Shown in pieces: positions 41,389 through 59,858 of a stretch of 64,000 nucleotides of DNA; position 1 is the first letter of the stretch, and each line of letters starts with the position of its first letter. The notes under the pieces are model-generated. The model was not told the origin of the DNA, searched no databases, and worked only from the letters and a program-made list of their open reading frames with translations. The stretch is from assembly GCA_049860595.1 (NCBI GenBank), contig CP187551.1; one strand, given 5' to 3'. Both the position numbers and the translations under genes were made by a program. The DNA is from Methanocaldococcus sp. 16A. GTDB taxonomy: Archaea; AGJL01; Methanococci; Methanococcales; Methanocaldococcaceae.

Positions 41389-44300
41389 AGTTTTTCCTCA
41401 ATCATTCCCTCAATTTCTAAGTATTTCTTTCTTAACTTTTCTTTTGTTTCTTCATCTGCTTTCCACATTCCTCTTTCAATAGCCTCTAACAACACCTCAG
41501 TTATATTTAATAAGGCGTAAGGATTATTTTCTTTAAAGAATTTTTCCATATCTTTATCAAAAACATACTTCTCAGCAATTTTTTGATACATCCAATCATC
41601 TATTATGTTTGAGGTTGCATCCCATTGGAACATATGCTCAATATACTTTGAGAAATCACTTGCCCCTTTATATCCATGCTTCTTCATTCCTTCAATCCAC
41701 TTTGGATTCATTATTTTTGTTCTAAATATTTGCTTTCCTTCTTCTTTTAAATGTTTTGTTTTTATTTTATATGGATTTGATGTATCTCCAATATAGCTCT
41801 TTGGTTGCTTGCCAGAATAATAAGTTACTGCTGCAATCATTCCACCATGATAGCTGTTGAAGTCATCTCCCTCAAAAATATCCCATTCTTGGCTATCTTC
41901 ATTTTTAACAGTTACTTCAATCTTTGAGAGCCTATTAATAAATTCCTCCTTTGCATCAACACCATAAATACCTTTTCCATAAGCATAACCTCCCCACTCA
42001 ACATAAACCTTTGCCAAATCTTCCAAAGATTTCCAGTTCTTCTCAGTCAATAAATCAGCAACTCCAGCTCCATAACATCCTGGCTTGCATCCAAATATTC
42101 TATATAACGATGTTTCTCTTGCTGTTTTCTCATCCATACCCTTCTTTAATTTTTCTTCAACCTCCTGTTTATAGTGTTTTTTTACATAATTCATTTCATC
42201 TGGCTCATCCAAATTTGCAACAGTTCTTATTGCCTCATCGATTAAATCAACAACCTGTGGGAAAGTATCTCTAAACAAGCCACTAATCCTTAAAGTTACA
42301 TCAATTCTCGGCCTTCCTAATTCTTCCAATGGAATAACCTCAAAGCCAACAATTCTTCCCATCTTATTCCAAACTGGCTTAACTCCTAATAAGTATAGTA
42401 TTTCTCCAATATCATCTCCCTTAGTTCTCATTGTAGGAGAGCCCCAAACTACAATTCCTAAATACTCAGGATATTTACCCTCTTCCTCCAAATACTTATT
42501 TAATAAATCCTCAGCCAATCTCTTTCCCATCTCATAGGCAGATTTCGTTGGAATCTCCTGAGGATTGCAAGAATAGAAGTTTCTTCCTGTAGGAAGACAG
42601 TTTATATCCTTTGTTGGAGCCCCTGCTAATCTTGGAGGGATATATTTTCCTTCTAAAGCATTTACTGCATTTTCAATCTCTTCATTTACTCTCATTAAAT
42701 TTTTATATATTTTTGAAACGGTTTTTAAAATCACCATTAATTCAGAATTAATTTTTATGGTTTTTAACTCATTAATTTTGTTCTCATCAAAGTTGTATTC
42801 CATATACTCCTCCAATAAATTTAATCCAATTTCATTTATCTTATCAATAATTTTATGATTTTTTCCTTTCTCCTCATTTAGTTTATCCCAATCATATCCC
42901 AAAATCTCTGCCAATTTTTCTAAATAATTGAACTGGTATCTAATAATCATAAAGAGCATATTAACTAATTTATCCCCTTCTAATGGAACTCCCATTATAT
43001 GCAATCCTTCATTTATTTGCCTATTTTTTAACTCCTCTAAGTAATCGTGAATTTTATTTAAAAGATTTTCAAAATTCTCCTCATTAATATTCTCATTTGT
43101 AACTTTTCCATCCATTAAATCTTCATCCAACTTCAATTCTTTAATTTTATTTATAATATTTTTCTTTAAAAAGTTCTTCTTTTCTTTATTATCTGCTTCA
43201 TAATATTCATCTATTTCTCTTTCTAACTCAGCTAACTCCCCATACAAATCAGATGTTGTCATTGGAGGAATTAAGTGGCTTATTATTGTTGCATAACTCC
43301 TCCTCTTTGCCTGTGTTCCTTCTCCTGGATTATTTACAATAAATGGATATACATTAGGAAGTCCCATACAAATATCAGGATAACAATCTCTTGATAAACC
43401 TGCTCCCTTTCCAGGAAGCCATTCTAAACTTCCATGTTTCCCTATATGCATTACTGCATCTGCTTTAAAAACATCCTTAATCCATTTGTAAAAGGCAATA
43501 TAATAGTGTGTTGGTGGCATATCTGGAGAATGATAAATTGCAGAAGGATTCTCTCCAAAGCCCCTTGGTGGTTGAACAGAAATGAAGATATTTCCATTTA
43601 TTATTCCTGGGATTATTAATTCTCCATTAAAATTCATAACTTCTCCAGGAATTGCTCCCCAATTTTTGATTAATTCATTTTTTACTTTCTCAGATAATGA
43701 GTTGAACCATTTTTTATAATCTTCTTTCTTAACTTTTCCTACAGCCTTTTTTATAACATCTTCTGTCAAAAATCTCTTATCATTTGTTGCATAGTTTAGC
43801 ATTTTTTTGATTAATTCAGTTCCATTTTCATAGAGTTCATCAACAACAAAACCCCTCTTTTTTAATTCTTTTAATATATTTAAAACACTTTCTGGGCTAT
43901 CTAATCCAAAAGCACTTGCAATTTTATCATTTCTTGGTGGATAGTTGTGGAAAATTATTGCTATCCTTTTTTCATCGTTTGGCTTTAACTTTAAATTTGC
44001 ATATCTTATAGCTAAATTAACAATCTTCTCAGCTCTATCTTTTATTGATTTGTATTTTATAATTGGAACTCCAACATCTCCATCTTTAATCTTTTTCTTT
44101 CCTCCTATTGGGAAATGTATTATTGTCCCATCGAATTCAGGCATAGCCATTCCAATAACTAAGTCGATTGGATTTATTCCAGATATTGACTTCTCCCAAT
44201 CTTCAATAAATCCTGTACTTACAATTCCCTGCAAAATTGGCACATTTAATTTTTTTAAAAATTCTGGTTCATCCATTAAGATATCTGCCTTTACTCCCAT

Positions 44301-45074
44301 AGATAGTGTAAACATGGTTGTGTTTATTAAAACATGGATGAATGGCTTTCCATCTTTATAGAAGAATTTTTTAAACACACCTAATGTTCCAATAGCCCCT
44401 AATTCATTTTTTAAATGAGATGTAAAGACGGCAACAGGTATTGCTCCCTTATCTTCAATAATTTCAATTAAATCGTTGAGATAATCGATATTGTTTGCAA
44501 TAAACCAATTTCTATAAAATAGAACACCAATTATCGGTTTGCCATTTATATCTTTTCCAATTTCTTTTAAATAATTTAAATAATCCTCTAAAGTTTCAAA
44601 GTATTTGTTTTTGTAATAAATTCCCTGCCATGGCATTGGCTTTGGTTCTTCATAGGGGATGTTTTTATCTCCAAATGTATTTGCTAAATATAATAATAGA
44701 TTTTTGTAATTTTCAACTCCTTCATAGCCCAAATATTTGATAACCTTTAACTTAACTTCCTCGCTCACTGTCGTTGCTTCATCCAAGTCAGGATGAACCT
44801 CATTTAGCGTAGGAAGAGGTAGGAAGGGAATGTTATGTTTATCAACAAATGCTTTTAATTCATCAAAATATCTAAACGCACTTTTACCACCCATGAGTTT
44901 TGTAAATACAATGTTAGCATCTTTAATAAATTCTAAGAACTCTTTAAACTCTTCCTCGCTACATTTATAGTCTAATATTTTAAATTCAATTCCATATTTT
45001 TTTACGTCCTTGTATGCCTCTTCAAAAACTAAATCATCACTATCAACAGTTGAAACAAACCCTATCTTTATCAT
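41385..45074 (-). CDS. cobN: Cobaltochelatase subunit CobN (class I chelatase large subunit)
   Basis: MPEFDG, QPPRG, HIGKHGSLEWLPGK, NNPGEG.QAKRR, LPTGRNFY, LGRPRIDV, NPKWIEGM. Confidence 0.93.
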   Translation of the reverse strand: MIKIGFVSTVDSDDLVFEEAYKDVKKYGIEFKILDYKCSEEEFKEFLEFIKDANIVFTKLMGGKSAFRYFDELKAFVDKHNIPFLPLPTLNEVHPDLDEATTVSEEVKLKVIKYLGYEGVENYKNLLLYLANTFGDKNIPYEEPKPMPWQGIYYKNKYFETLEDYLNYLKEIGKDINGKPIIGVLFYRNWFIANNIDYLNDLIEIIEDKGAIPVAVFTSHLKNELGAIGTLGVFKKFFYKDGKPFIHVLINTTMFTLSMGVKADILMDEPEFLKKLNVPILQGIVSTGFIEDWEKSISGINPIDLVIGMAMPEFDGTIIHFPIGGKKKIKDGDVGVPIIKYKSIKDRAEKIVNLAIRYANLKLKPNDEKRIAIIFHNYPPRNDKIASAFGLDSPESVLNILKELKKRGFVVDELYENGTELIKKMLNYATNDKRFLTEDVIKKAVGKVKKEDYKKWFNSLSEKVKNELIKNWGAIPGEVMNFNGELIIPGIINGNIFISVQPPRGFGENPSAIYHSPDMPPTHYYIAFYKWIKDVFKADAVMHIGKHGSLEWLPGKGAGLSRDCYPDICMGLPNVYPFIVNNPGEGTQAKRRSYATIISHLIPPMTTSDLYGELAELEREIDEYYEADNKEKKNFLKKNIINKIKELKLDEDLMDGKVTNENINEENFENLLNKIHDYLEELKNRQINEGLHIMGVPLEGDKLVNMLFMIIRYQFNYLEKLAEILGYDWDKLNEEKGKNHKIIDKINEIGLNLLEEYMEYNFDENKINELKTIKINSELMVILKTVSKIYKNLMRVNEEIENAVNALEGKYIPPRLAGAPTKDINCLPTGRNFYSCNPQEIPTKSAYEMGKRLAEDLLNKYLEEEGKYPEYLGIVVWGSPTMRTKGDDIGEILYLLGVKPVWNKMGRIVGFEVIPLEELGRPRIDVTLRISGLFRDTFPQVVDLIDEAIRTVANLDEPDEMNYVKKHYKQEVEEKLKKGMDEKTARETSLYRIFGCKPGCYGAGVADLLTEKNWKSLEDLAKVYVEWGGYAYGKGIYGVDAKEEFINRLSKIEVTVKNEDSQEWDIFEGDDFNSYHGGMIAAVTYYSGKQPKSYIGDTSNPYKIKTKHLKEEGKQIFRTKIMNPKWIEGMKKHGYKGASDFSKYIEHMFQWDATSNIIDDWMYQKIAEKYVFDKDMEKFFKENNPYALLNITEVLLEAIERGMWKADEETKEKLRKKYLEIEGMIEEKL

Positions 45075-45190
45075 AATTTTCACCATTCAGATTAAGTTAA
45101 ATAATTATTAAGTAATTTTGATAAATTATATATTAACGTATGTTAAAAATTTTTTGGAATATAGTAAAATAATTTTAAATAGGTGAAAAT

Positions 45191-45622
45191 ATGGAAAAGA
45201 AGAAAGAACTTTTAAAGAAAATCAGAGAGTTTATGATTTTAAATTTAGAGATTAAAAAACTATCAAAAGAGTTAGGAATTAATGAAATACATGACACTTA
45301 TGAAGATGTTACAAAACTTGTTAGAGAACCAAATAAAAGATTATATAAAATGCTTTATGATGCGGCAATGGAAATAGAATACGAAGAGTTTGGCGGGAAG
45401 AAAAGGAAAGAAATTCCATGGTTTCCAAAGATTGACTATGAAAAATGCAAAAATTGTAAGAAATGTGTTGAATTTTGCCCTAAAGGTGTCTATGATATAG
45501 AAAATGGTAGAGTTATTGTTAAATACCCATACAATTGCATAATTAACTGCAACGCTTGCTCATATATGTGCTGTGAGAACAACGCCATAATTTTTCCAGA
45601 GAATAAAATAGAAAAATTATAA
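45191..45622 (+). CDS. Ferredoxin-domain protein with N-terminal helical extension
   Basis: CKNCKKCVEFCP and CIINCNACSYMC. Confidence 0.85.
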   Translation: MEKKKELLKKIREFMILNLEIKKLSKELGINEIHDTYEDVTKLVREPNKRLYKMLYDAAMEIEYEEFGGKKRKEIPWFPKIDYEKCKNCKKCVEFCPKGVYDIENGRVIVKYPYNCIINCNACSYMCCENNAIIFPENKIEKL

Positions 45623-45632
45623 GTGATAGATT

Positions 45633-46319
45633 ATGAAAATTGGTTATTTGAGTATTAGTGATAAAATAACAGTTATGTGTTACGGATGTAATTTTAAATG
45701 CAAAAATTGTTTTGTTAAGATGGACAGTTATAAAGAAATTTCTCCAACCAAACTATGCAAAATAATTGATAATCTATGCAGTAAAAAGAAAATAAATACT
45801 ATCCTAATCGCTGGTGGAGAGCCTACACTTCAGAAAGATTTGCCCGAATTTACAAGATTGTTAAAGAGTAAAAATAGAAAAGTGATTCTAACCACAAACG
45901 GATATTATTTAAAAAATATTGTTGATGATTTATTTGTTGATGAAATACATGTTGATTTAAAAGCTTTTAATGAAGAAAAACACAAATATTTAACTGGAAA
46001 ATCAAATAAAAATGTCCTAAAATGTATAGAATATTTAGCAAAGAAAAAACTTAATTTTGAGGTAGATACTGTTCTAATTCCAAATATTGTGGATATTGAT
46101 GAGATTGAGAAGATTGCAAAATTTTTAAGCAAATGGGATGTTAGATATAGGATTATTGGATATACTCCATTTAACAATAATCTAAATGCACGAAAACCTA
46201 CAAAGGAAGAGCTTTTAAAGGCAAAAGAAATTGCAAAAAAATATTTAAGTAATGTAACTACCTCATTAGATTTTAGACGGCATAAAAAAGTTAAAGAGAT
46301 TATAAAATTTGATAAATAA
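45633..46319 (+). CDS. Radical SAM protein (PflA/activase-like)
   Basis: CYGCNFKCKNC, GGEPTLQ, TNG, VDLKAF. Confidence 0.85.
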   Translation: MKIGYLSISDKITVMCYGCNFKCKNCFVKMDSYKEISPTKLCKIIDNLCSKKKINTILIAGGEPTLQKDLPEFTRLLKSKNRKVILTTNGYYLKNIVDDLFVDEIHVDLKAFNEEKHKYLTGKSNKNVLKCIEYLAKKKLNFEVDTVLIPNIVDIDEIEKIAKFLSKWDVRYRIIGYTPFNNNLNARKPTKEELLKAKEIAKKYLSNVTTSLDFRRHKKVKEIIKFDK

Positions 46320-46324
46320 AGTTT

Positions 46325-47470
46325 TTAATTTTTAGATAAATTTTGATAATGTTTTAATAGTTGAGCCTCTAAATCTTTAATGCTTCCATTGAATTTTATA
46401 ACTTTTTTGGCATTCTCTAAAAGTTTTAAGTTTAATTTATTCATTTCTCCTACCGGAAAGTTTGTATCTATTACAACATCACACATTTTTAAGTATTTTA
46501 ATGCCTTATTGTAATTATCTTCAGAAATTGGTTGATATGCTTTTTCTTCAATAATCTCAACTTCCATTGCTTTAGCTATTATATAATCAATATCATTCTT
46601 ATGTAAGACCCCACAATAAACCTTATATCCATTTTTAACCAAATATCTCAAAACATTAGCTCCACTCCCCCCTCCACAAACTACAAAAACTTTTTTATCA
46701 CTTGTATTTTCATTTTTTAATTCAAAATAACCAATTTCTTTGGAAAAATTTGCATTTTTTATATCATATAAATTATTGACGGTTTCTTTGTCCATAACAT
46801 CCTCAGGATGTCCATAGGCAATTATCTTACCATCTTTGATTAGTGCTATTTTGTCGGCAATCCTTAAGGCGAGTTCTATATCATGAATAGTTACAATTAT
46901 AGCGAGATTTTTTTCTGTTGCCAATTTTCTCAACAACAAAGTAAGTTCTATCTTGTGCCTTGCATCTAAGAAGGATGTAGGTTCATCTAAAATTAAAACC
47001 TTTGGCTCTTGTGCTAACGCCCTTGCTATCATTATCTTCTGTCTTTCCCCATCACTCATTTCAAGGAAGTTTTTTTCTAATAAGTGAAGAGCATTAACAG
47101 CTTTCGCAGAATTTATAATAATTTCCTTATCCTTCTCTGATAATCTTCCAAATAAATCTGTATAGGGATGCCTTCCTATTGCAATTATATCAAATCCTGT
47201 TAAATTTCCTGGATTTACTCTTTCTGTTAAAACTACAGCCATTTTTTTAGCAAGTTGAGAAGGTTTTAGTTTATGTATTATATTTGAATCTAAATAAACT
47301 ACTCCTTTTATAGGCTCTAGATATGTTGCTATACACTTCAATAGTGTTGATTTTCCAACACCATTAGGACCTATTATTGCCAAAATTTCTCCTTCTTTAA
47401 CTTCTAAATTTACATTATCAACGACAATTCTCTTATGATAACCAATGGCAAGATTTTCCGTTTTTAACAT
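46325..47470 (-). CDS. ABC ATPase of FecE/BtuD type with C-terminal extension
   Basis: GPNGVGKS, MSDGERQK, ILDEPT, TIHD; extra ~130-aa domain starting VVCGGGSG. Confidence 0.92.
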   Translation of the reverse strand: MLKTENLAIGYHKRIVVDNVNLEVKEGEILAIIGPNGVGKSTLLKCIATYLEPIKGVVYLDSNIIHKLKPSQLAKKMAVVLTERVNPGNLTGFDIIAIGRHPYTDLFGRLSEKDKEIIINSAKAVNALHLLEKNFLEMSDGERQKIMIARALAQEPKVLILDEPTSFLDARHKIELTLLLRKLATEKNLAIIVTIHDIELALRIADKIALIKDGKIIAYGHPEDVMDKETVNNLYDIKNANFSKEIGYFELKNENTSDKKVFVVCGGGSGANVLRYLVKNGYKVYCGVLHKNDIDYIIAKAMEVEIIEEKAYQPISEDNYNKALKYLKMCDVVIDTNFPVGEMNKLNLKLLENAKKVIKFNGSIKDLEAQLLKHYQNLSKN

Positions 47471-47554: not shown

Positions 47555-49564
47555 TCATTTTTTTATTAGGAATAATAATTCTTTTTTATAAATTAACAGC
47601 AACCCTATCAAAAATCCAATTAAAGTAGTCCATATATTTGGTTCGTCTTCTATTTCAACTTTTTTTGTAATTGTGTAATTTTTTACGATTTTATTAACTT
47701 TTATAACAACTTTTGATTGGTTAATTGTTAAATTGTAGTAATAATCATTAAATATCGTCTTTTTTGGCTTTATAATCTCAACATCTTCTTTAAAATTCCA
47801 TATATATTTAATTAACCTCTCATAGGGCATGTAATATTCAACATACCCATTTATTTGAGTGCTTTTTGAGACATTTATTGGGATTGAAAATACTTTTGTT
47901 TCATTTGGCAGTAATTCAAATGAAATATGTGTTTTGTTTGGTTTGTAGTTATTATAATCTGAAAAGTAAATATATCCATGAATTTTTTCAGAGAAAGGAT
48001 TTTTTACTGTAATATTGCAAAATATTGTTATATTAGTTTCATTAGAATATATTGTTTTATTGCTAAGTGTGATATTTATTGGATTTAACTTTTTTATCTC
48101 AATTAGGCATTTATCATATGAAGTAGCTCCAAAGGTATCATTAACCTTTAATTTAACAACGTAATTTCCTTCTTTTTTATATCTATGAGTTGGATTTGAA
48201 GAAGTTGACGTTGAGTTATCGCCAAAATCCCAGTAGTAGTGGAGTTCATCATTTTCCTTATCATAGCATAAAGAATAGAAATGAACATCGTAATCATCAA
48301 CTATTTCAAATGCAAAATATGCTTTTGGAGGTGTGTTGTTTCCCCTTGGAATTATATGAATGATTTTTGTATCTTTCAATGGAACATCAACAATCCCATT
48401 TTCATCAAACAAATAAAGCTGTGAGATTTTTATTTCGGTAGTTACATTTTCATTTTTTATTGGCTCTATCCAGAAAGATAAAATACTGAAGTTTCCACGT
48501 ACACTTCCATTTATTTTAATATAAAAATCTATTGTACCATTCTCATCTGTCCAATTTTTATCTATGGTGGATAAACTTGTTGATATGTCACTAATTTTCA
48601 ATAGTGTTGAATTGTAGGATATTTTTCCTTTAATTTCTGATATATTTGCATCTATGTTTTTTGCCTCAATGTAAATGAATCCTTTATCTCCATAAGAGAT
48701 ATTTTTTTCAGTAGTTGAAAAACCAACATACTTTTCTACAGTTGTTTCTTCACCGATTGTGAAGTTTGCTGGTTTTACAATTGTGTCATTTCCATTTATC
48801 TTTACAGATGCGTTAATTAGGTAAGTCCCTTCTTTGCTTGTGAAGAATGTCAATTTCATCAAATCAAAATTTTCTTCTGAAGTATTTAACTCAACAAAGA
48901 AATTTAAACTATCGTTATTGTAATTTAAATCTACATTTGAAATGTTATTTTCTAAATAATAGAAGTTTAAACCTACAATACTTAAATTTGGGTAGTATAT
49001 TGTTCCAGTTATGTTATATGTATTTTCTTTTGCGTTTTTTATTGAAATGAGAACATCAAAATTCTCATTTAACTTTGGATTTATGGGAGTTATCTCAACA
49101 ACCGTTGAATTTAAACCAATAATATTTACTTCAACAGAGTTGTAAGTTGCATCTATGGCATTTCCATCTATATCAGACAGTTTAGGCTTTTGGGTTATTG
49201 TATATGTTCCATTGTCCAATGCTTTAAACCTCAAAGTAGCTACTGTAAAGTTTCCGGAAGGTTCATTGCCTGACCACATCAGTGATATTGATATTTTTCC
49301 ATCATCTACAGAAATACTCTTTAAGAATGCACTATTGGCTATATCACTTAAAATGATATCATCAGTGGTTATGTTTAATGCACTTGGGAAATATATGGTA
49401 TCTTCAAACCCACTCAATTTTTCTGATACATTTACGCTCAATGTTAAATCAAAGTAGTCATATTCATTCACAACAATATTATCTGGCGTTAATCTAACTT
49501 CATTTCCAAAACTTACATGAAAGAACAATAAAAATGAAATCAATATTAAAAATTTCGACTTCAT
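47555..49564 (-). CDS. Membrane-anchored scaffold: signal peptide, ~3 cohesin-like modules, PKD domain, C-terminal TM
   Basis: Cohesin-like strands (SGFEDTIYFP...ATLRFKA...LSDIDG; IKGKISYNSTLL); PKD YYWDFGD...HRYKKEGNY; terminal hydrophobic helix followed by Lys. Confidence 0.72.
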   Translation of the reverse strand: MKSKFLILISFLLFFHVSFGNEVRLTPDNIVVNEYDYFDLTLSVNVSEKLSGFEDTIYFPSALNITTDDIILSDIANSAFLKSISVDDGKISISLMWSGNEPSGNFTVATLRFKALDNGTYTITQKPKLSDIDGNAIDATYNSVEVNIIGLNSTVVEITPINPKLNENFDVLISIKNAKENTYNITGTIYYPNLSIVGLNFYYLENNISNVDLNYNNDSLNFFVELNTSEENFDLMKLTFFTSKEGTYLINASVKINGNDTIVKPANFTIGEETTVEKYVGFSTTEKNISYGDKGFIYIEAKNIDANISEIKGKISYNSTLLKISDISTSLSTIDKNWTDENGTIDFYIKINGSVRGNFSILSFWIEPIKNENVTTEIKISQLYLFDENGIVDVPLKDTKIIHIIPRGNNTPPKAYFAFEIVDDYDVHFYSLCYDKENDELHYYWDFGDNSTSTSSNPTHRYKKEGNYVVKLKVNDTFGATSYDKCLIEIKKLNPINITLSNKTIYSNETNITIFCNITVKNPFSEKIHGYIYFSDYNNYKPNKTHISFELLPNETKVFSIPINVSKSTQINGYVEYYMPYERLIKYIWNFKEDVEIIKPKKTIFNDYYYNLTINQSKVVIKVNKIVKNYTITKKVEIEDEPNIWTTLIGFLIGLLLIYKKELLFLIKK

Positions 49565-49579
49565 TGTTATCCCCTAACA

Positions 49580-50404
49580 TCATTTAAATCTTGATAGAAT
49601 AAAGCCAAAAAGAATCCCTGCCAACACTCCAGAGAGCAAATTAAATCCTAAAAATTTAAAACTACTCTTTTTTTCCACAACTACATTAACTACCGGATGG
49701 TATTCCGTTATGTTAATTTCTTTAACAATAACTTCTGGTTCCTTTACTTTAGGGGTTATGTAAATCCTATTTACTATTGTTGATGAAGATGTTTCAACAT
49801 CTTCTACATCTTCTTTTAGTTTCATTGTTGTTGTGTTTGTTACATTTCCAATGCCTTTTATTATCACCTTTGCCCCAAAGAACTTTATGTTTGGATATTC
49901 TTTGAATGTATTTGTAGATTTGTCAAAATAACTTTCACCACTACCATACCTGTACCCCAATGCTGAACTAACAGATCCTGACAAATTTAATTGGGTTTCT
50001 CCTTCTTTAATAGGAATAAACATTATTTCTCCGATACAAAAATCTTCTTCAATGGGATTATTAAATGAAATTGATAAATTAAATGCTCCATCTTTAAATT
50101 CATAAAACTTTAACTTCTCATTTTTACATATCTCACTCCAATTAAAACCATAAGGTTTTAAATATTCAGGAGGGTAGTTTATATAAATATCCACTCCTCT
50201 ACACCCACCGTCTTCACTATTATCATGATAAAGATCTCCAATTTTTGGAAGATTTTCTATCGTTATGTTAAATTTAATAATCTCTCCATTTGAAATAACT
50301 TCCTCGGGGATTAATTTAACATAGACATCTTCTGCATAACAAATATCTAAAAAAATAGAAATAATGGAAATAAGAGTTAAAATAACTAAAAAATGTTTAT
50401 TCAT
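49580..50404 (-). CDS. Single cohesin-like membrane-anchored protein
   Basis: Signal peptide; FNITIEN...GVDIYINYPPEYL...IGEIMFIPIKEG; Thr/Ser linker; C-terminal TM. Confidence 0.62.
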   Translation of the reverse strand: MNKHFLVILTLISIISIFLDICYAEDVYVKLIPEEVISNGEIIKFNITIENLPKIGDLYHDNSEDGGCRGVDIYINYPPEYLKPYGFNWSEICKNEKLKFYEFKDGAFNLSISFNNPIEEDFCIGEIMFIPIKEGETQLNLSGSVSSALGYRYGSGESYFDKSTNTFKEYPNIKFFGAKVIIKGIGNVTNTTTMKLKEDVEDVETSSSTIVNRIYITPKVKEPEVIVKEINITEYHPVVNVVVEKKSSFKFLGFNLLSGVLAGILFGFILSRFK

Positions 50405-50949
50405 TACCCATCACCTTTTTTTATAATGTAAGCTATCAATCCAATTAAAAGAACTGCAAATATGACCATTATTGGATTAAATGAAAATGATTCATTTTTT
50501 TCTACTTTTTGAGTGGAATTAGATATTATCTTTAGATTTACTGTTTTTTGAGGGATTTTAATGGCATTTCCTTCACTGTCTGATGCCTTTGCCTTTATTG
50601 TTATCGTTGCATTTCCACATTCCAAAGCCTTTATTTTGAATTCACCAACTTTAAAATCCTCATTTTTTGGATTTGTCAAAAAAACATACTGTATTGCAGC
50701 ACTTCTATTTTTGTTTATTGTTAAGTTGTAATCTGCTCCAACATCATAGCTAATTACATTATCTACTACAAGGTTATTAGAGAGGTAAATATTGCATTCT
50801 AAACCTCCACAATTTGAAACATTATTTGCGTAAACTTCTACAACAAATAAATCTCCTTTTTTAACTTCAGAAGGAGCTTTTACTGAAACATCTATTGCCA
50901 TACATGTTGGAAGTATAAGAAAAATCAACAATGCAGCAAACTTTTTCAT
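50404..50949 (-). CDS. Single cohesin-like membrane-anchored protein
   Basis: Signal peptide; VKKGDLFVVEV...GGLECNI...GEFKIKALECG...ASDSEG; C-terminal TM followed by KK. Confidence 0.7.
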   Translation of the reverse strand: MKKFAALLIFLILPTCMAIDVSVKAPSEVKKGDLFVVEVYANNVSNCGGLECNIYLSNNLVVDNVISYDVGADYNLTINKNRSAAIQYVFLTNPKNEDFKVGEFKIKALECGNATITIKAKASDSEGNAIKIPQKTVNLKIISNSTQKVEKNESFSFNPIMVIFAVLLIGLIAYIIKKGDG

Positions 50950-50990: not shown

Positions 50991-51030
50991 TACCGTAAAA
51001 TATATATACCTACCGTAAAATATATATACC
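50991..51030. repeat. Perfect 20-bp tandem duplication containing a TATA-like element in a divergent promoter
   Basis: TACCGTAAAATATATATACC twice. Confidence 0.92.
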
Positions 51031-51129: not shown

Positions 51130-52485
51130 ATGATGCCGAAAAATATTAATATCATTGGGTATATATTACTTACCGTTTTCTTACTATTAGTGCCAGTATA
51201 TGCAGAAGGTGATTACAACTATAGATTGGGTGATGTCAACAAAGATGGTTCCATTGATATTGCAGATGTGGTTTATCTTTTCAAACACAGAGACCTTGAT
51301 ATAGAAGATGGTGATTTAAACGCAGATGGCAGCATAGACATTGCTGATGTTGTTTATCTCTTTGTTAATTATCAAAAAATGAGAGAACCTATTCATTATG
51401 CCAAAAATATAAAAATTACATATTATGATGAAAATGGAAATGAAGTAAATCCTTACAATGGAGAATCTTATGCATACAAAATAGTTGAAGACGCCACTGG
51501 GCAGAGATTACTATTAAAAAATGAAAGTCAGCCAATACCTTCATGGGCTGAAGGAAAATACGACAAGGTAATTAATGTCCCATTAAAAAGAGTTGTTGTG
51601 ATGAGTTCCACCCACATAGCTTTAATGGAACCACTAAATGACGATGGCTCAGTGATTGGCTCAGTGAAGGGAATAATGTGGGGAGGAACATACAAGTGGT
51701 ACTTTGATGATATTAAAGAAGGGCTTAATAATGGTTCAATAATTGACGTTGGTTCTTCATACAGTCCAAATTATGACTTAATTATTAACATCTCCCCACA
51801 GGTTGTGTTTGTCTATCCAGGATACAGCGGAGATGCGATAATTGCAAAATGTAAGGAATTGAACATAACTTACGTTGCTGATGCAGAATACTTAGAAGAT
51901 TCTTACCTTGCAAGATGTGAATGGGTAAAGATGTTTGCAGCGTTTTACAATAAAGAAGATGTGGCAAGCAAATACTTCACAAGAATAGAAAAGAGGGCAT
52001 TGAATGTGAAAAGATTAACAAGAAATACAAATAGACCATTAGTGGCTTGGGGTAAGAACTATCCAAAATATGGTGGAACATACGTTCCAAAAGCACAGTC
52101 CTATGTTGCTAAGGCAATCATAGATGATTGCCATGGAGATTATATATTTAAAGACATTCCAGGGACTGGCAGTGCATGCATAGATTACGAGACATTTGCA
52201 GAGAGGGCAAAAGATGCAGACATCTGGGTAGTTCCATCAAGCACAACATGGTTATCAACCTTTAAAGATGACCATCCAGGATATGAAAACTTTAAAGCTG
52301 TGCAGAATGGAAGATTGTTCTGTATAAGTGATGATTACTGGCAACTTGGATTAATGAATACTGATGAGGTATTGATGGATTTAGCAACAATATTACATCC
52401 AGATGTATTCAAAGGAAGAACTACTCACTACTTCCTAAAATATAATCCTAATACTAATACAGCCGAGCCATATACCGCAGAATAA
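51130..52485 (+). CDS. Dockerin-fused ABC substrate-binding protein (BtuF/FepB class III), #1
   Basis: Signal peptide ending VYA; duplicated Ca-loop GDVNKDGSIDIADVVYL / GDLNADGSIDIADVVYL; SBP motifs PLKRVVVMS, ARCEWVK, DLATILHP. Confidence 0.9.
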   Translation: MMPKNINIIGYILLTVFLLLVPVYAEGDYNYRLGDVNKDGSIDIADVVYLFKHRDLDIEDGDLNADGSIDIADVVYLFVNYQKMREPIHYAKNIKITYYDENGNEVNPYNGESYAYKIVEDATGQRLLLKNESQPIPSWAEGKYDKVINVPLKRVVVMSSTHIALMEPLNDDGSVIGSVKGIMWGGTYKWYFDDIKEGLNNGSIIDVGSSYSPNYDLIINISPQVVFVYPGYSGDAIIAKCKELNITYVADAEYLEDSYLARCEWVKMFAAFYNKEDVASKYFTRIEKRALNVKRLTRNTNRPLVAWGKNYPKYGGTYVPKAQSYVAKAIIDDCHGDYIFKDIPGTGSACIDYETFAERAKDADIWVVPSSTTWLSTFKDDHPGYENFKAVQNGRLFCISDDYWQLGLMNTDEVLMDLATILHPDVFKGRTTHYFLKYNPNTNTAEPYTAE

Positions 52486-52536
52486 ATAAAAATTACTTTT
52501 CTTCTTTTAAAAATAAATTTTTGAAGGTGACTGTTG

Positions 52537-55500
52537 ATGAAATGGAAGGTGCTTATACTGTCAATTTTAATGGCATCACTAATAGGAGTTTATGGTGAAA
52601 ACGTAACAGTAGAGTTGGTTCCATCAGATGTTATGGGATATGTTGGGGATACTATTAACTTAGATTTAGTTGTAAAAAATGTAGGTGCTGAGGGATGTGA
52701 GGGCTTTGATACATATATTTATTTTAATTCAAGTATTTTGAATATATCTGAAAACAATATTACCTTAAAAGATGTAAGTGGGAGTATATCTAAAGAGGAT
52801 ATATCAATATCCAATGGAAAAATTTGGATTTCGTTATGGTTTAGTAAAAGTTTTACAGGGAATTTTACAATTGCCACACTATCATTTAAGGCAATAAATG
52901 AAGGTCAAGGAACAATATCATTGTATGGAACTGTTTTATCTGATTCAAATGGATTCCACATTGAGCCATTAATTTTAAAAAACTCAAATGTAAAAGTATT
53001 ATATAAACCAATTGCTGACTTGTTAGTTCCTGAAATTATAAATGCTGAATTTGGAGATAATGTAACTGTTCCAATAACTGTAGCTCCAAAGGTAAATGAA
53101 ACTGTGAATGTAATAAAAGGATATTTATCGTACGATAAAAATATGTTAAAACCAGTAAATGTATCTTCAAATGTTGGAAATGTTTTCTTCAATAGTTCAA
53201 GTGATTACTTTGAAATATCAAATATAAATCAATCAACAAACTTCACAATTAACATCACCTACAATGTAATAAATGTTGGAAATACCACAGTAAAATTGGA
53301 TAATGTCTATATGGAAGATATCAATGGAAGTTATGTAAAGGATATTTCATCAAATGCAACCACAATAGTAATCCCAGGACCTGATTTAGTAGCAGAGATA
53401 ATACCAGTATCACTCAAAGCATATACAAACAATACAATACCTATATTGGTAAAGAATATTGGGGAGAGGAATGTAACAGGTAACTTCTCAGTTAAGTTAT
53501 TGGTAGATACAAATGAGATAGGAACCTATACAATTAATGGATTGAATGTTGGAGAAACTAAGGAGGTAAACTTCACATTCATGCCTACAGAAGAGAAGAA
53601 TTACACACTTTGTGTTTTAGTTGATTGCAACAATGACGTAAAGGAAATTGATGAGAACAACAACAAATACGTTGATGAATTGTATGCTACAGAGGAGCCA
53701 ATAAGTGTAAATCTTATATCATCAACGAACTTAACAAAAACTGAAGAAACCTTTGAAGTTAGCATCACATTAAATAATATAACATCCGATAGACCAGCAA
53801 AGGCAATAGAAGGAGTTTTAACTTATGATAGTGGAGTATTAGATTGTATAAACTTTACATTCCTAATCAATGCATCTGAAGAAAATGGGACCTTACTGGA
53901 GAACATAACCTATGAAAAAGGCAAGGTAATATTCAAATTAATGGATGGTATTATTAACTCCTCAACAGTTGTAGCTATTGCTAAATTTAAGGCAATAGAT
54001 GTTGGAAACTCAGATATTGGTCTATCAAATTTAGTAGTATCTGACATACATGGATATAAATTTAACAAAGTATTAACAAACAATGTAAATGTTGTTGTAC
54101 AAGGTCCAAACATCAAAATAACCGACATCAATATATCAAACCCATTAATATACAGAATTCCAACTACAATAAACATTACAATAACAAACAATGGACATCA
54201 AGAAGCAAAACCATTTGATATTGTATTATACGCTGATGCCAATGAGATTGGAAAAGTAACAGTTGATGGGCTGAATATTAGTCAAAGTAAGACTATAGTA
54301 TTTAATTGGACTCCAGATGATATAAAAACATTTACAATAGTAGCAGTTGTTGATCCATCCAACGCAGTTAAAGAGGAGAATGAAAGTGATAATAAGCTTG
54401 TTAAGAAAATAAATGTTATAGAAATTCCAGTTTGGGTAAATGTATATAACACAACACCTGTAATTAATGGAACCTTTAATGCTACAATAGAGGTTAATGG
54501 AATAAATGAAAGGTTATGTAGTGGATATGATGGAAAGTTGATATTCAAAAACTTAAAAATTGAAAACATAGAACTTATTGGAATAAACAACTACACAATA
54601 AATAACAGTGAGTTAATATTCAGCGGATACAACTTCACAAAGTTAGGAACATTTAAAATAGCAAATATAACATTTAGAATAATTGATGAGAACAAGAGTT
54701 ACTCAGCAATATTGAAGTGCGTAGTGTTATCGGACAAGGATGGATACAAGTTTGAGAAGGTATTTATCAACAACACAATATTGGATGAGAGCTTACAAAA
54801 GGTCTTTGAAGGATTGTGTATTGAATCAGATGTGCTTGATAAAGTGGATATTGATAATGTGAAATTAGAATCTGTTGGAGATATTAACATAACAGTATTG
54901 CCTGTTAAAATTGGAGATATTGTAGATGAATTAACAATACCAAAAGTTAGTGAAAATATAACAATAAATATTACAGATGATGTTATTATAAAAATAAATT
55001 CAATATTGAACGATGCAAAAACATTAGAAGAAATTACCAAATCAGTAGATGATGAAGTAGAGTTAAATAAAACGTTGGATATGATATTAGAAAATATAGA
55101 ACCACTACTATGCGAAGGATTTAACATAACAAACAAAACTAAAGAAGAACCAAAGGAAATTGGTAATAAATTAATATCAACAATAAAATTCAAGGCAGAG
55201 AACTCATCCAACAAAGGATTTGTAATCGTTAGAATTCCAGTTGGTGAATTAAAAGTTGAGAATATTGTTGTAAATAACGGAACAGCGAATATTACCTTAA
55301 AAGAAAACGATGCTAACAGTAATGTAGGTTGGTATAAATATGTAGGTAATGGAGTTATTGAAGTTATCTTAATAAAAGACCCAGAAGTAAGTATTACTCT
55401 TACTAAAACATTACCTGTAATTCAAACAACTACAACAGCTTATTACTACAGTGGTGGAGGAAGCCATCATACAGCAATAGAACTCTACTCAGATGTTGCA

Positions 55501-55917
55501 CAAGATATTAAATCAACAAAAATAAAAGAATTTGTCCATAAAGCAAAATTAATCATAGGTTCAAAAATTGACATGAACTTATCAGCAAAATGCCTTAAAA
55601 ACGAATCAGAGTTAATAAATAATGCACTAGAGATAAAAGAGGATTGCATTTTAATTGGAGGACCCGTAGCGAACCCACTAACTAAGAAATATATGTGGAC
55701 ATTCCCAGTAAAAGTAACTAACGACTATCCAGGAAAACACAAAGGAGTTATAGAAAAACAAATAATAAATGGACACACAGTAATACTATTAGCAGGTTCA
55801 GATAGATGGGGTACAAAGGCAGCTGTAGAATACTTCAAGCAGTTAGATGATATTCCAGATGAACCAATATTTGTAGAGTGGAAAGATGGAAAAGCTATTA
55901 AAATAGAAAAACCTTAA
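52537..55917 (+). CDS. Scaffoldin-like surface protein: ~4 cohesin-like modules, 2 CARDB, C-terminal S-layer domain
   Basis: Cohesin-like GFDTYIYFNSSIL...ATLSFKA, KGYLSYDKNML, EGVLTYDSGVL...AKFKAI, GYDGKL...ANITFRI; CARDB GPDL...VDCNNDVKEIDENNN and VDPSNAVKEENESDN; S-layer-type IGGPVAN and AGSDRWGT. Confidence 0.8.
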   Translation: MKWKVLILSILMASLIGVYGENVTVELVPSDVMGYVGDTINLDLVVKNVGAEGCEGFDTYIYFNSSILNISENNITLKDVSGSISKEDISISNGKIWISLWFSKSFTGNFTIATLSFKAINEGQGTISLYGTVLSDSNGFHIEPLILKNSNVKVLYKPIADLLVPEIINAEFGDNVTVPITVAPKVNETVNVIKGYLSYDKNMLKPVNVSSNVGNVFFNSSSDYFEISNINQSTNFTINITYNVINVGNTTVKLDNVYMEDINGSYVKDISSNATTIVIPGPDLVAEIIPVSLKAYTNNTIPILVKNIGERNVTGNFSVKLLVDTNEIGTYTINGLNVGETKEVNFTFMPTEEKNYTLCVLVDCNNDVKEIDENNNKYVDELYATEEPISVNLISSTNLTKTEETFEVSITLNNITSDRPAKAIEGVLTYDSGVLDCINFTFLINASEENGTLLENITYEKGKVIFKLMDGIINSSTVVAIAKFKAIDVGNSDIGLSNLVVSDIHGYKFNKVLTNNVNVVVQGPNIKITDINISNPLIYRIPTTINITITNNGHQEAKPFDIVLYADANEIGKVTVDGLNISQSKTIVFNWTPDDIKTFTIVAVVDPSNAVKEENESDNKLVKKINVIEIPVWVNVYNTTPVINGTFNATIEVNGINERLCSGYDGKLIFKNLKIENIELIGINNYTINNSELIFSGYNFTKLGTFKIANITFRIIDENKSYSAILKCVVLSDKDGYKFEKVFINNTILDESLQKVFEGLCIESDVLDKVDIDNVKLESVGDINITVLPVKIGDIVDELTIPKVSENITINITDDVIIKINSILNDAKTLEEITKSVDDEVELNKTLDMILENIEPLLCEGFNITNKTKEEPKEIGNKLISTIKFKAENSSNKGFVIVRIPVGELKVENIVVNNGTANITLKENDANSNVGWYKYVGNGVIEVILIKDPEVSITLTKTLPVIQTTTTAYYYSGGGSHHTAIELYSDVAQDIKSTKIKEFVHKAKLIIGSKIDMNLSAKCLKNESELINNALEIKEDCILIGGPVANPLTKKYMWTFPVKVTNDYPGKHKGVIEKQIINGHTVILLAGSDRWGTKAAVEYFKQLDDIPDEPIFVEWKDGKAIKIEKP

Positions 55918-56159
55918 TCATTCTTCTTTTTTAATTAATCTTTTTTAAAAGTTTCATGGAAAAGTAATAAAAATTGAAAAACCTTAAAAATCTCTCAATT
56001 TAATTCTTTATTTTATTATTTTAGTAATAATATTTTTAAAAATTCTCTTACTTTTAACAACATTTAATTAAAAACATCATAAATTATATATATAAAATAT
56101 GTTAAATTATTATCACGTAACATTATTTGAAAAAATATAATACTAAGGAGTGGATTACC

Positions 56160-57479
56160 ATGTTTAAAAAAATAGTATTAATAATGGCTATTTTATTGAC
56201 ACCATTAGCATTTGGAGAAAACGTAGGAGATGTAAATGGAGATGGTTCAATAGATATTGCTGATGTTGTATATCTCTTTAAGCATAGAGATGTCCCATTA
56301 GAAGTTGGAGATTTAAACTGTGACAATTCCGTTGACATTGCAGATGTTGTATATCTATTCGTCAACTACCAAAAATGGAGAGAACCTGTAGTGTTTGCTA
56401 AAAACTTTGAAATAGAATACTACGATGTAAATGGAAATCCAGTAAGTTATGATGACAATTGGGCTTATAAAATTGTAACAACAAAATACGGGGACAATAT
56501 TTATAATAAGTACTGCATTGTTAGAGAAGGAGAGAATCCTCCAAGTAATCTGCCTTCAGATGTTAAAGTTATATATGCCCCAGTGAAAAAAGTTGCTACA
56601 GATAGTTCTTTCCAAGTAGCTATGCTTGAGGCTTTAAATGATGATAATGTAAGAAAATCCTTAAGAGGAGTATCTAAATACACATATACCAAAATAAAAG
56701 ATTATGGAGTTTTCCCGAACTTAAAACCTTATGTCGATAGTGGAAATATAATTCCAATAGGAAAATGGGGCGCACTTGATAAAGAGGCATTATTAAATAT
56801 AAGTCCAGACATTGTTTTCTTAACTTGGACACATGGTTATTTAACTACAGATATTGATACTGTAAAGGATTTAGGACTCAATTATCTCGTAACTGTAGAA
56901 TCAAATGAACCAGACTTTAGAGCAAAGGCAGAATGGGCAAAGGTATATGCTGCATTTTATAACTTAGATGCCAAAGGAAATGATTTCTTCCAGAAAGTTT
57001 GGAAAAAGAGAAATGAACTTATAAGAAAAACAAGAAATGCTGACTATAGACCAAAAGTAGCTATGCTCTATTGGTCACTATATTCAGGACCTTGGGTCTA
57101 CTGTGCCCAAAACTACTATGCAAAATGGGTTTTAGATGTTAAAGGAGATTACTGCTTCCTTGATATTCCAGGAACATCTTATGTAAATCTTGATAAAGAA
57201 ACAACCTTAGAGCACCTCCAAGACTGTGATGTATTCATATACATGAATTGGAACTCATTAAATGAGCCAATGGATACACTTGAAGAATTAAAAGAAAGAA
57301 GACCTGACTTAGCACCTATATTAGATCATGCAAAGAGAGTATATGTAACAAAACCAAATTATTCCTATGATGGAAATGTAAATATGGACTTGTTGATGGA
57401 AGACTTTGCAAGAATGATACATCCAGAATGCTTTGATGGTGGAGATAGCGAATTACATTACTTCAAAAAACTGAAATAA
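56160..57479 (+). CDS. Dockerin-fused ABC substrate-binding protein (class III), #2
   Basis: ATG 56160 after GGAG; signal peptide ending AFG; GDVNGDGSIDIADVVYL / GDLNCDNSVDIADVVYL; PVKKV, AKAEWAK, DFARMIHP. Confidence 0.9.
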   Translation: MFKKIVLIMAILLTPLAFGENVGDVNGDGSIDIADVVYLFKHRDVPLEVGDLNCDNSVDIADVVYLFVNYQKWREPVVFAKNFEIEYYDVNGNPVSYDDNWAYKIVTTKYGDNIYNKYCIVREGENPPSNLPSDVKVIYAPVKKVATDSSFQVAMLEALNDDNVRKSLRGVSKYTYTKIKDYGVFPNLKPYVDSGNIIPIGKWGALDKEALLNISPDIVFLTWTHGYLTTDIDTVKDLGLNYLVTVESNEPDFRAKAEWAKVYAAFYNLDAKGNDFFQKVWKKRNELIRKTRNADYRPKVAMLYWSLYSGPWVYCAQNYYAKWVLDVKGDYCFLDIPGTSYVNLDKETTLEHLQDCDVFIYMNWNSLNEPMDTLEELKERRPDLAPILDHAKRVYVTKPNYSYDGNVNMDLLMEDFARMIHPECFDGGDSELHYFKKLK

Positions 57480-57789: not shown

Positions 57790-58842
57790 GTGGTTATTTT
57801 GAAAATTAGGATTAAAGCTCTAACAGTATTTTTACTTTTAATGATATTTTCTTTGTCAATATTGAGTATAACTACTGGAACCATAAAAATAGAGCCAAAA
57901 AAATTTTATAACTATTTAATGGAAGGCACTACGGGTAATCCAATATGGGATAATGTTATTGAAAAGTGCAGACTTCCAAGAACTGTTGGAGCAATATTTG
58001 CAGGAATGGGTTTAGCAGTAGCAGGCTTGTTGATGCAAAGTTTGTTTAGGAACCCTTTAGCTGACCCTTATCTAATAGGGGTCTCGAGTGGGGCATCTTT
58101 AGGAGTAGCTCTTTATGTTTTTACATCATTACTATTTGAATTAGGAATTCCTCATTCAATATGGGGTTTTATATTAGCAGCCTATTTAGGCTCTCTGTTC
58201 TCTATGTTAGTAGTTATATCGTTAGCAAGGAAAGTTAGGCAAATTACTACACTTTTAATTGTTGGGCTCATGATTGGCTATATTTCCTCAGGTTTAATAA
58301 CTATTGTTATAACCTTTGGAGATTTCTTAGGTGTGGAGAATAGCAATTTGGCAAGTTTTATGATGTGGGGATATGGTTCTTTAAGTTCTTTGACTATGAA
58401 TAGAGCCATAATAATGGCTATACTGGTGGTTATTTGTAGCTTTATAACCTATTTTTTATCTAAGTATCTTGACGCCTATTTGCTTGGAGAAAACTACGCA
58501 AAGAGTGTTGGAGTTAATATAAAAAATTTGAGGATTGCCATAATTTTAATATCTTGTATGATTACTGCAAGTATTGTAGCATTTGCTGGACCAATAGGAT
58601 TTGTAGGAATGGTTTGTCCAATTGTTGCAAGGTTGGTATGTGGAACATCAAAACATTTCTATGTAATTCCTAATGCTATGTTAATAGGTGCAATTTTTTT
58701 AATAATAGCTGATATTCTTGTAAGACCTGGAGTAATAATTCCAACAACAAGCACAGAACTACCTTTAATGTGTCCTTTATCAATTATAGGGGCTCCAATA
58801 GCCATAATGATATATATCAAAAGAAAAAAGATGGGGATATAA
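57790..58842 (+). CDS. FecCD/BtuC-family ABC permease 1
   Basis: [39 protein letters not shown]. Confidence 0.93.
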
Positions 58843-59858
58843 TGAGAAAAATATCCGTGATTTTGCTAATGGTTTTGTTAATATTTTCTCTATTTGTTTT
58901 TGGGATATTTAAAGGAGGTAATGCAAAATCAATAACTATGGGTGATGTAAAAAATTTTTTAATTTATGGGACTACAGGAGATGAGTTTAAAGACAATATT
59001 ATATGGAATGTTAGAATTCCTCCGTTAGTCACTGCTTTAATTGTTGGAGCAGTTCTATCAGTTTCAGGATTAAAACTTCAGACACTTTTTAGAAATATTT
59101 TAGCGTCTCCATATACAACTGGAATATCCACTGGAGTTATATTAGGTGTGGCTATAACAGTATTCTTAGGTTTTTCATTCTCAAATATTATAAGAATTCC
59201 TGATTATATTGTAGGAGGTTGGATAGGTGCAGCTATAGCTTTAATAATATTATTGGCTCTTGCTTCAAAAATTAAGGATGTTACTGGAGTTTTAATTTGT
59301 AGTATATTGTTTGGATACTTCTACTATGGAATTGAGAGTTATTTAATAAGTTTTGCTGACAATGTCCAGATTCAAGAATTTTGGATGTTTTTACAGGGAA
59401 GTTTTTCAGGGACTAGATGGAATGATTTAAAATTAATGGCTATCTGCTCATTAATCTTTTTGATATTCTCATATATGCTTTCAAAGCATTTAAATGCCTT
59501 ACTCTTTGGAGAAAAATATGCAAAAAGCTTTGGTTTAAATATAAAATATGTTAGGATATTAATTTTATTACTCTCGGGATTTATTGTTGGGGCAGTAATT
59601 CCTTATGTAGGTTTAATTCCATTTGTTGGTTTGGCAGCGCCATATATTGCAAGAATTTTAATGAAAACTTCAGACCACAGATGGACAATTCCAGCAGCTA
59701 TGTTAATTGGGATGTTCATTTCACTACTGTGTTATTTGGTGTCAATAAAGATATTTGCCCCGAGAGTAGTTCCTGTAAAATCAATTTTAGATTTATTAGG
59801 TGGGGCGTTAGTAGTGTATATAATATACAAATCTGAAAAAAGATATAGAATAGATTGA
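58842..59858 (+). CDS. FecCD/BtuC-family ABC permease 2
   Basis: QTLFRNILASP, LFGEKYAKSFG, GLIPFVG; ATG overlaps upstream TAA. Confidence 0.92.
   Translation: MRKISVILLMVLLIFSLFVFGIFKGGNAKSITMGDVKNFLIYGTTGDEFKDNIIWNVRIPPLVTALIVGAVLSVSGLKLQTLFRNILASPYTTGISTGVILGVAITVFLGFSFSNIIRIPDYIVGGWIGAAIALIILLALASKIKDVTGVLICSILFGYFYYGIESYLISFADNVQIQEFWMFLQGSFSGTRWNDLKLMAICSLIFLIFSYMLSKHLNALLFGEKYAKSFGLNIKYVRILILLLSGFIVGAVIPYVGLIPFVGLAAPYIARILMKTSDHRWTIPAAMLIGMFISLLCYLVSIKIFAPRVVPVKSILDLLGGALVVYIIYKSEKRYRID

Follow-up and report, generated by a model that had tools for sequence, protein, structure and literature searches.

Known Systems and Overview of the Locus

ATP-binding cassette (ABC) importers of archaea depend on binding proteins that have to be held at the surface of a cell without an outer membrane, and four routes to this end have been described, namely a lipobox, a C-terminal transmembrane (TM) helix, an archaeosortase and the prepilin-type 'bindosome' (Szabo and Pohlschroder 2012, PMC3387779). 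As presented in the portions of that review concerned with anchoring, all four do without a separate anchored adaptor protein, and dockerin-cohesin pairs are absent there. Here, we describe a locus that shares their task, located in a 64,000-nucleotide stretch of DNA (hereafter, the window) from Methanocaldococcus sp. 16A (GenBank assembly GCA_049860595.1, contig CP187551.1), in which two ABC substrate-binding proteins, SBP1 and SBP2, each carry an N-terminal dockerin and are encoded among genes for cohesin-bearing surface proteins. We consider it probable, based on the comparisons detailed below, that a cohesin-dockerin tether takes the place of the lipid anchor in both receptors, and that the two share the same sockets.

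Dockerin-bearing ABC binding proteins have been noted in passing for anaerobic methanotrophic archaea (ANME) (Chadwick et al. 2022, PLoS Biol, PMC9012536). The likeness to the window lies in an archaeal ABC binding protein with a dockerin, in genomes that also encode multi-cohesin and S-layer-linked partners; in the relevant part of that paper the evidence is genome annotation only, and the carriers are of the NikA/OppA and TroA types, among many dockerin proteins. In the window, in contrast, the carriers belong to the Peripla_BP_2 family and have the genome's only dockerins, all cohesins lie in the transporter locus, and a swap between lipobox and dockerin among orthologues bears directly on function. 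Literature searches on dockerins and cohesins in Methanococcales and on archaeal ABC receptors returned no description of such a system, the ANME remark being the only related statement, and the function of cohesin-dockerin modules outside the cellulosome 'is not known', in the wording of the passage concerned in Timmers et al. (2017).

Two further systems invite comparison. The non-cellulosomal cohesin of Archaeoglobus fulgidus (2xdh) is likewise archaeal and has no cellulose link, and it is the best structural match of one of the window's cohesins, that of protein c181, at 15% identity. The bacterial cellulosome resembles the window in its two-repeat, symmetric Ca-loop dockerins and in scaffoldins with three or four cohesins, one of them tied to the surface layer; moreover, the structural matches of c181 include 2vn5 and 2vn6, entries titled for the dual binding mode. 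Unlike in the cellulosome, however, the cargo consists of two transport receptors and not of glycoside hydrolases, the dockerin is N-terminal with a short repeat spacing of 27 residues, and the anchors are TM helices and an archaeal S_layer_C domain instead of SLH domains or sortase. No dockerin was found on carbohydrate-active enzymes, the genome's only two being on transport receptors, and the Pfam scan of the four cohesin proteins found no carbohydrate-binding module.

If this reading is correct, all cohesins and dockerins of a small genome (1.62 Mb in 3 contigs, 99.98% complete) would serve one ABC importer, giving these modules a concrete and testable role as a further archaeal way of holding transport receptors at the surface. 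In addition, evolution would have run the control experiment, as sister species have a lipid anchor in place of the dockerin and no sockets. Genetic tools exist for Methanococcus, and a compact 48-residue dockerin from a lineage that includes hyperthermophiles may interest builders of protein scaffolds.

Two Transport Receptors with N-Terminal Dockerins

SBP1 (451 amino acids (aa); 51130..52485, plus strand) consists of a signal peptide (aa 1-25, ending in ...VYA/E), a dockerin (aa 34-81) and a class III substrate-binding domain (approximately aa 88-451), and the same parts follow one another in SBP2 (450 aa; 56127..57479, plus strand), whose signal peptide ends in ...AFG/E. Both match the Pfam family Peripla_BP_2 (PF01497; 79.4 bits for SBP1 and 45.1 bits for SBP2, cut-off 27.5 bits), and against Dockerin_1 (PF00404; cut-off 22.9 bits) SBP2 scores 27.2 bits and SBP1 22.5 bits. 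The AlphaFold2 (AF2) model of SBP1 (pLDDT 92.7) has iron/siderophore, haem, B12 and Ni-His binding proteins as its Foldseek matches (E 2e-13 to 1e-10), which at 11-17% identity point to the general class only. With a PF01497 match, a two-lobe fold and adjacent FecCD permeases and ABC ATPase, the receptors have the features of class III (cluster A) FecCD-type binding proteins; public records label their homologues with the generic 'ABC transporter substrate-binding protein'. Identity between the two binding domains is 40% in a global alignment (38% for the whole proteins), and from their sequences they are diverged yet clearly paralogous. The SBP2 reading frame begins with a TTG at 56127, but because an AGGAG-type ribosome site lies 8 nt ahead of the ATG at 56160, the latter is the likelier start and would yield a signal peptide MFKK...AFG.

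Each receptor has one N-terminal hydrophobic segment and no further one in a hydropathy scan, and both C-termini are hydrophilic, with no C-terminal anchor. Judged by eye, VYA/E and AFG/E satisfy the -3/-1 rule, and, the prepilin class of the bindosome having also been considered, the N-termini resemble ordinary Sec signal peptides with small residues at these positions. A lipobox Cys is present neither in nor just after the signal peptide of SBP1 or SBP2. Five other ABC binding proteins of the genome (SBP_bac_5, Peripla_BP_6, SBP_bac_11, NMT1_2 and a third Peripla_BP_2) have signal peptides that end in a lipobox-like Cys; therefore, the organism uses the ordinary lipid route, and SBP1 and SBP2 are the exception.

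The dockerins of SBP1 (51229..51372, plus strand; recognized by translation, loop pattern and profile) and SBP2 (56226..56369, plus strand) both comprise 48 residues in two repeats, each with a 12-residue Ca loop of the pattern D-x-N-x-D-G-x-x-x-x-x-D followed by a helix. The repeats are separated by a spacer of 8 residues and start 27 residues apart (28 in 4 of 24 aligned dockerins), and DIADVVYLF is present in all four. The two dockerins are identical in 40 of 48 residues (83%), with both helices identical and all differences confined to the Ca loops and the spacer. In the AF2 model of SBP1 the dockerin helices span aa 44-52 and 71-85, with pLDDT above 90. A sequence search of solved structures found no match for SBP1 and two weak dockerin matches (5lxv_B and 2jnk_A) for SBP2, and PF00404 is precomputed on 6 of 71 homologues in public records. 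Repeat positions 10/11 and 17/18, at which type I dockerins make their contacts, are IA/FK and IA/FV in the window, identically in SBP1 and SBP2. The two repeats agree at positions 10/11 in 21 of the 24 dockerins, and where a lineage has its own variant there (II in genome G018, VS in G025), each repeat of both paralogues shows it. SBP2-type and several SBP1-type dockerins also have a conserved Cys in the second Ca loop, at position 4 (DLNCDNS; 56310-56321 in the window).

Searched for in all six frames of the whole genome, the Ca-loop pattern occurs only in these four loops. A profile built from the 24 dockerins finds only SBP1 and SBP2 (E about 1e-28, the next match being at E 0.47), and the Pfam Dockerin_1 scan of the genome likewise reveals no dockerins beyond these two, whose matches are far beyond chance.

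Most of what a preliminary description of this DNA, made from the sequence alone, had stated for these proteins was borne out, including the signal-peptidase-I-like sites, the missing lipobox Cys and the hydrophilic C-termini (by eye and by hydropathy scan), and DIADVVYLF in all four repeats (by translation). The TM check that it proposed gave the single N-terminal segment per receptor reported above. Two of its expressions need qualification: 'near-identical' is accurate for the dockerin helices but not for the loops and spacer, and 'strongly diverged' captures the distance between the binding domains but not their clear paralogy.

Cohesins of the Locus

A cohesin profile search of three iterations finds nine cohesin modules in the genome, all of them in the locus: four in a scaffoldin-like protein, three in c669, and one each in c274 and c181. 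The scaffoldin (1127 aa; 52534..55917, plus strand; Pfam Cohesin 39.4, CARDB 122.6 and S_layer_C 32.2 bits), whose gene stands between those of SBP1 and SBP2, has a signal peptide, cohesins at aa 36-149, 171-274, 401-517 and 643-746 (iterated profile), two CARDB domains and a C-terminal S_layer_C domain (aa 969-1100) that is also found in a 568-aa S-layer-like protein of the same genome; it has no TM helix. The other three proteins, encoded on the minus strand, each combine a signal peptide with a C-terminal TM helix detected by hydropathy. In c181 (50404..50949) a cohesin at aa 29-135, assigned from the AF2 model and Foldseek, is followed by a short spacer and the helix at aa 153-181. In c274 (49580..50404) a spacer of about 90 aa separates the cohesin at aa 37-157, assigned by profile, from the helix at aa 248-274, while c669 (47555..49564; Pfam and profile) has cohesins at aa 32-142, 164-273 and 289-397, a PKD domain at aa 426-482 and the helix at aa 647-667. 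Anchors are thus found on the socket side, as TM helices in c181, c274 and c669 and as S_layer_C in the scaffoldin, whereas the receptors have neither.

Pfam Cohesin (PF00963, cut-off 24.1 bits) matches two stretches of the scaffoldin and none of c181, c274 and c669. The c274 cohesin is nevertheless found at E 7.7e-32 after profile iteration and at 1.4e-9 with the c181-family profile. This profile reaches E 2e-18 on the N-terminal module of c669, 2e-12 on that of the scaffoldin and 1e-9 on that of c274. The AF2 model of c181 (pLDDT 86.3) is all-beta; Foldseek ranks the A. fulgidus cohesin 2xdh first (E 1.2e-9), and cohesins make up almost all the other matches listed, so that, as modelled, c181 has a cohesin fold, a nine-stranded beta-sandwich (jelly-roll).

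Lipobox and Dockerin in Orthologous Receptors

The comparison covered 61 genomes, namely 40 Methanococcales (the whole phylum-level group) and 21 other archaea; 20 loci from 19 genomes were compared, and the N-terminal sequences of 35 receptor homologues, the window's two among them, were read. Homologues of SBP1 occur in 37 of the 61 genomes, all of them Methanococcales. Of the N-termini read, 27 carry a dockerin and 8 are lipobox-type. The latter come from five genomes (G001, G006, G009, G010 and G014), have their Cys in AGC, SGC or PGC, and contain in the place of the dockerin a low-complexity spacer that ends at the start of the binding domain. In these five genomes the locus retains receptors, permeases and ATPase, and three queries found no cohesin gene, either at the locus or genome-wide.

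Across the 40 Methanococcales genomes, dockerin and cohesin are both present in 26 and both absent in 11, of which eight keep receptor homologues and three (G021, G022 and G031) have none. Cohesins without a dockerin were found in two genomes that are 81% (G037) and 64% (G038) complete, where the receptor matches are cut by a contig end or consist of a C-terminal fragment only, and a dockerin without cohesins was found in one (G027). Presence and absence are thus concordant in 37 of 40 genomes by the cohesin profile, and the c274 and c181 protein queries agree. Moreover, all 59 dockerin matches, from 27 genomes, fall within SBP homologues. No dockerin was detected in any of the 21 other archaea searched, and in one of them (G044) a weak cohesin-profile match is limited to signal-peptide positions. 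Both states occur within three genera, in which the dockerin is present in 8 of 16, 10 of 13 and 5 of 7 genomes, respectively.

The best 150 representatives of the receptor family in a library of 1.84 billion proteins include 3 with paired dockerin loops, one further fragment that reads as a dockerin, and 79 with a lipobox-like Cys. Two of the three paired-loop proteins carry a source name, Methanococcus, and the same system is found in proteins publicly named Methanococcus voltae and M. maripaludis.

Some receptors depart from both patterns. The G027 receptor (locus L039, 5053-6324) has a dockerin in a genome without a detected cohesin, and a close public homologue, P0065, combines a dockerin with a signal peptide that ends in a Cys (...PSAC); these two may be intermediates in the dockerin/lipobox swap. 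In P0081, P0086, P0091, P0129, P0063 and P0067 a long N-terminal extension takes the place of the lipobox. Pfam identifies this extension as Cu_amine_oxidN1 (PF07833) in P0063 (source: Clostridium) and P0067, and it may represent another route of surface holding for this receptor. Some genomes, such as G023, G024 and G019, have three or four dockerin-bearing receptors each, several of the extra copies containing internal stops.

Evolution of the Dockerins

In 12 genomes with two receptors, the dockerins of a pair are 59-100% identical versus 31-45% for the binding domains. In three genomes (G002, G024 and G032) an identity of 99% in the dockerin DNA drops to 35-48% over the 40 codons that follow, which indicates gene conversion confined to the module. 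For the window's pair the dockerin DNA identity is 72%, and the codon differences, 23 of them synonymous and 8 non-synonymous, point to purifying selection on the two modules. Concerted evolution of this kind fits one shared socket type together with selection for internal symmetry, as far as sequences can tell. Recent duplication was also considered as the source of the similarity between the window's dockerins and was ruled out, as the DNA identity of only 72% and the 23 synonymous differences do not agree with it.

A tree of the binding domains was built from 29 rows (22 dockerin-type and 7 lipobox-type) with the paralogues rooting each other; it omits the second receptors of loci L022, L023, L026, L028, L030 and L033. 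Lipobox forms make up one clade per paralogue (SH-aLRT 100), nested among dockerin forms, although the branches on which the nesting depends have support of 89-94 and are not all strong. Within Methanococcales, the lipobox therefore probably replaced the dockerin, and the simplest history is that it did so once per paralogue in one sublineage, in which the cohesin genes were lost too. Whichever the direction, lipobox and dockerin occupy the same position and are mutually exclusive in the sequences compared. SBP1 of G028, a member of the other family (locus L022, 5819-7189), is 92% identical to SBP1 of the window, whereas the lipobox orthologues from the window's own genus are 61-65% identical to it; this likeness could result from transfer of the whole cassette between families.

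A Proposed Tether and Its Alternatives

The reading that a cohesin-dockerin tether replaces the lipid anchor is based on domain content, gene order, genome-wide exclusivity, the swap among orthologues, co-occurrence and concerted evolution. Both receptors would be exported by a Sec-type signal peptide and cut by signal peptidase I, leaving an exposed N-terminal dockerin of 48 residues that would depend on Ca. This dockerin would then insert into one of nine cohesins, five of them on c181, c274 and c669 and four on the S-layer-type scaffoldin. Because the two dockerins have identical helices, the receptors would be expected to compete for the same sockets, and the near-symmetric repeats could allow binding in either orientation, as in cellulosomal dockerins. 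From the tether, the receptors would deliver their ligand to the permease. The preliminary description had already proposed that the dockerin replaces the anchor and that the two receptors, with putatively different ligands, are interchangeable on the same cohesins. The first proposal is strongly supported by the orthologue swap, the contrast with the lipobox-type receptors and the linkage to cohesins, but the direction that it implied looks reversed on the tree; the second finds support at the level of sequence, in the identical helices and the concerted evolution of the dockerins.

The sockets can be ordered by reach, from c181 (spacer of about 17 residues) through c274 (about 90) and c669 (three cohesins plus PKD) to the scaffoldin (four cohesins plus CARDB). 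One may imagine that the cohesins form a graded rack from membrane to S-layer that concentrates the two receptors, a 'transportosome' for one importer and a stand-in for a periplasm, in which dual-mode dockerins let loaded receptors hop towards the permease and the receptor mix can be retuned with the anchors unchanged. We regard this elaboration as speculative and rather unlikely in its entirety.

Several observations weigh against the tether. Cleavage of the signal peptides was judged by eye, and the hydrophobic core of SBP1, with about 18 residues, is long enough for an uncleaved anchor; moreover, the SBP1 dockerin is 0.4 bits under the Pfam cut-off. Nine sockets versus two plug-bearing proteins is a lopsided ratio, and the cohesins may have other partners or roles. 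The c181 homologues of the other family and of G002 (loci L025, L026, L027, L029, L030, L035 and L038) end in a short amphipathic tail (...NFLKSILGG) without a clear TM helix, whereas the helix is clear in the window's clade. In addition, a stop interrupts the c181 homologue in G020, G025 and G030, where other cohesins are kept. G016, on the other hand, has c181 as the sole cohesin kept, adjoining the ATPase and SBP1 genes and with no scaffoldin, so one membrane cohesin may suffice; these two findings together therefore make the sockets look redundant in the comparison of genomes. Furthermore, G027 has a dockerin-bearing receptor and no cohesin detectable with the c181 and c274 proteins, the c181-family profile or Pfam Cohesin. 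The co-occurrence is not phylogenetically independent, since the genomes are kin and the counts overstate their independence, and the tree shows a single origin of the lipobox state in each paralogue. Finally, dockerin-cohesin binding is predicted here from sequence: a complex prediction for the c181 cohesin (aa 19-146, 13-row alignment) and the dockerin (24 rows) scored 0.06 against a mark of 0.32 but, run without controls and for one of nine cohesins, speaks neither for nor against binding.

The length of the SBP1 hydrophobic segment (approximately residues 8-25, near that of a TM helix) leads to an explanation in which the signal peptides stay uncleaved and serve as N-terminal anchors, with dockerin-cohesin contacts only clustering or organising receptors that are already anchored, for instance around the permease. 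As the dockerin starts 8-9 residues past this segment, it would lie at the membrane surface, where the c181 cohesin on its spacer of about 17 aa could reach it. Nevertheless, we consider this improbable, given that both N-terminal segments have small residues at -3/-1 and a helix-breaking Pro just upstream, that four of the nine cohesins sit on a TM-less S-layer-domain protein, beyond the reach of a membrane-pinned dockerin, and that the orthologous swap is with a lipobox, i.e., a cleaved and lipid-anchored form, which is most sensible if the dockerin form has no other anchor. Similarly small is the probability that we assign to the scaffold being chiefly an outward device for capture or adhesion, displaying the receptors on or in the S-layer for scavenging, sensing or cell contact, with tethering for transport secondary. 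The CARDB and S-layer domains of the largest cohesin protein, the PKD domain of c669 and the excess of sockets over plug-bearing proteins are compatible with such a device, and adhesion roles are the subject of speculation in a passage of the ANME literature (PMC5244752). However, ABC binding proteins are the only dockerin carriers in the 27 dockerin-positive genomes, the membrane-anchored cohesin genes lie directly upstream of the ATPase gene, and G016 keeps the system with the membrane cohesin c181 only and no scaffoldin.

More remote still is the idea that the dockerin-like module is a mere EF-hand-type, Ca-binding extension without a cohesin partner, the cohesin-like proteins being unrelated to it. 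SBP1 does have a weak EF-hand_1 match along with its dockerin score just below the cut-off, and G027 has the module and no detectable cohesins. This very improbable explanation is at odds with the co-localisation of the genes and the 37 of 40 concordant genomes, with the joint loss of dockerin and cohesins in the lipobox lineage, with the concerted evolution of the dockerins and of their two repeats, and with the cohesin fold of c181.

Importer Genes, Ligand Class and Locus Layout

The ATPase gene (381 aa; 46325..47470, minus strand; PF00005, 104.9 bits) lies directly downstream of c669; the closest paralogue of its product is the ATPase of the genome's other FecCD system, and its orthologue adjoins the SBP genes in dockerin-type and lipobox-type loci alike. 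Two FecCD-type permeases are encoded on the plus strand. Permease 1 (57790..58842; PF01032, 241.3 bits) is BtuC/FhuB/FecCD-like and below every equivalog cut-off. Permease 2 (58770..59858; PF01032, 224.1 bits) has a listed GTG start that overlaps permease 1 by 73 nt, and because its orthologues start right after the stop of permease 1, translation probably begins at the internal ATG at about 58842. From its gene content, the locus is predicted to encode a FecCD-type (type II) ABC importer in which two permeases and one ATPase are served by a pair of paralogous receptors.

The modelled fold places the receptors' ligand in the class of metal chelates, corrinoids or haem. No NCBIfam equivalog was obtained for the SBPs or the permeases, the FhuD match (E 0.009) being far below cut-off. 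Beside the ATPase gene (41385-46319) lie genes for a CobN-like chelatase (1233 aa), a 4Fe-4S ferredoxin-like protein and a radical-SAM protein, neighbours that hint at metal or tetrapyrrole traffic, and no more. A CobN gene is also near the locus in G016, G018, G028 and G032, and appears to be split into several open reading frames in G013 (L023). Only 2 of 317 ungapped columns show fixed differences between the paralogue groups; the number is kept low by a deep division within the SBP2 group, which forms two branches, and it speaks for neither the same nor different ligands.

The window has a G+C content of 30%, and its proteins have their closest named homologues in Methanocaldococcus and other Methanococcales. 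On the minus strand the gene order is c181-c274-c669-ATPase, in which neighbours overlap or lie no more than 84 nt apart; on the plus strand it is SBP1-scaffoldin-SBP2-permease-permease, and the two divergent sets are separated by 180 nt. The same or a rearranged arrangement is found in the dockerin-type loci of 11 further genomes from two families. A scan for bacterial-type promoters and terminators gave counts at the level of shuffled sequence, a scan type not relevant to an archaeon. In the divergent region between the cohesin and SBP1 operons, a 20-nt BRE/TATA-like element is present as a perfect tandem duplication (50991..51030, plus strand), with no further exact copy elsewhere in the genome. 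In the related loci L021-L024 the element occurs at the same place as a single copy with one mismatch.

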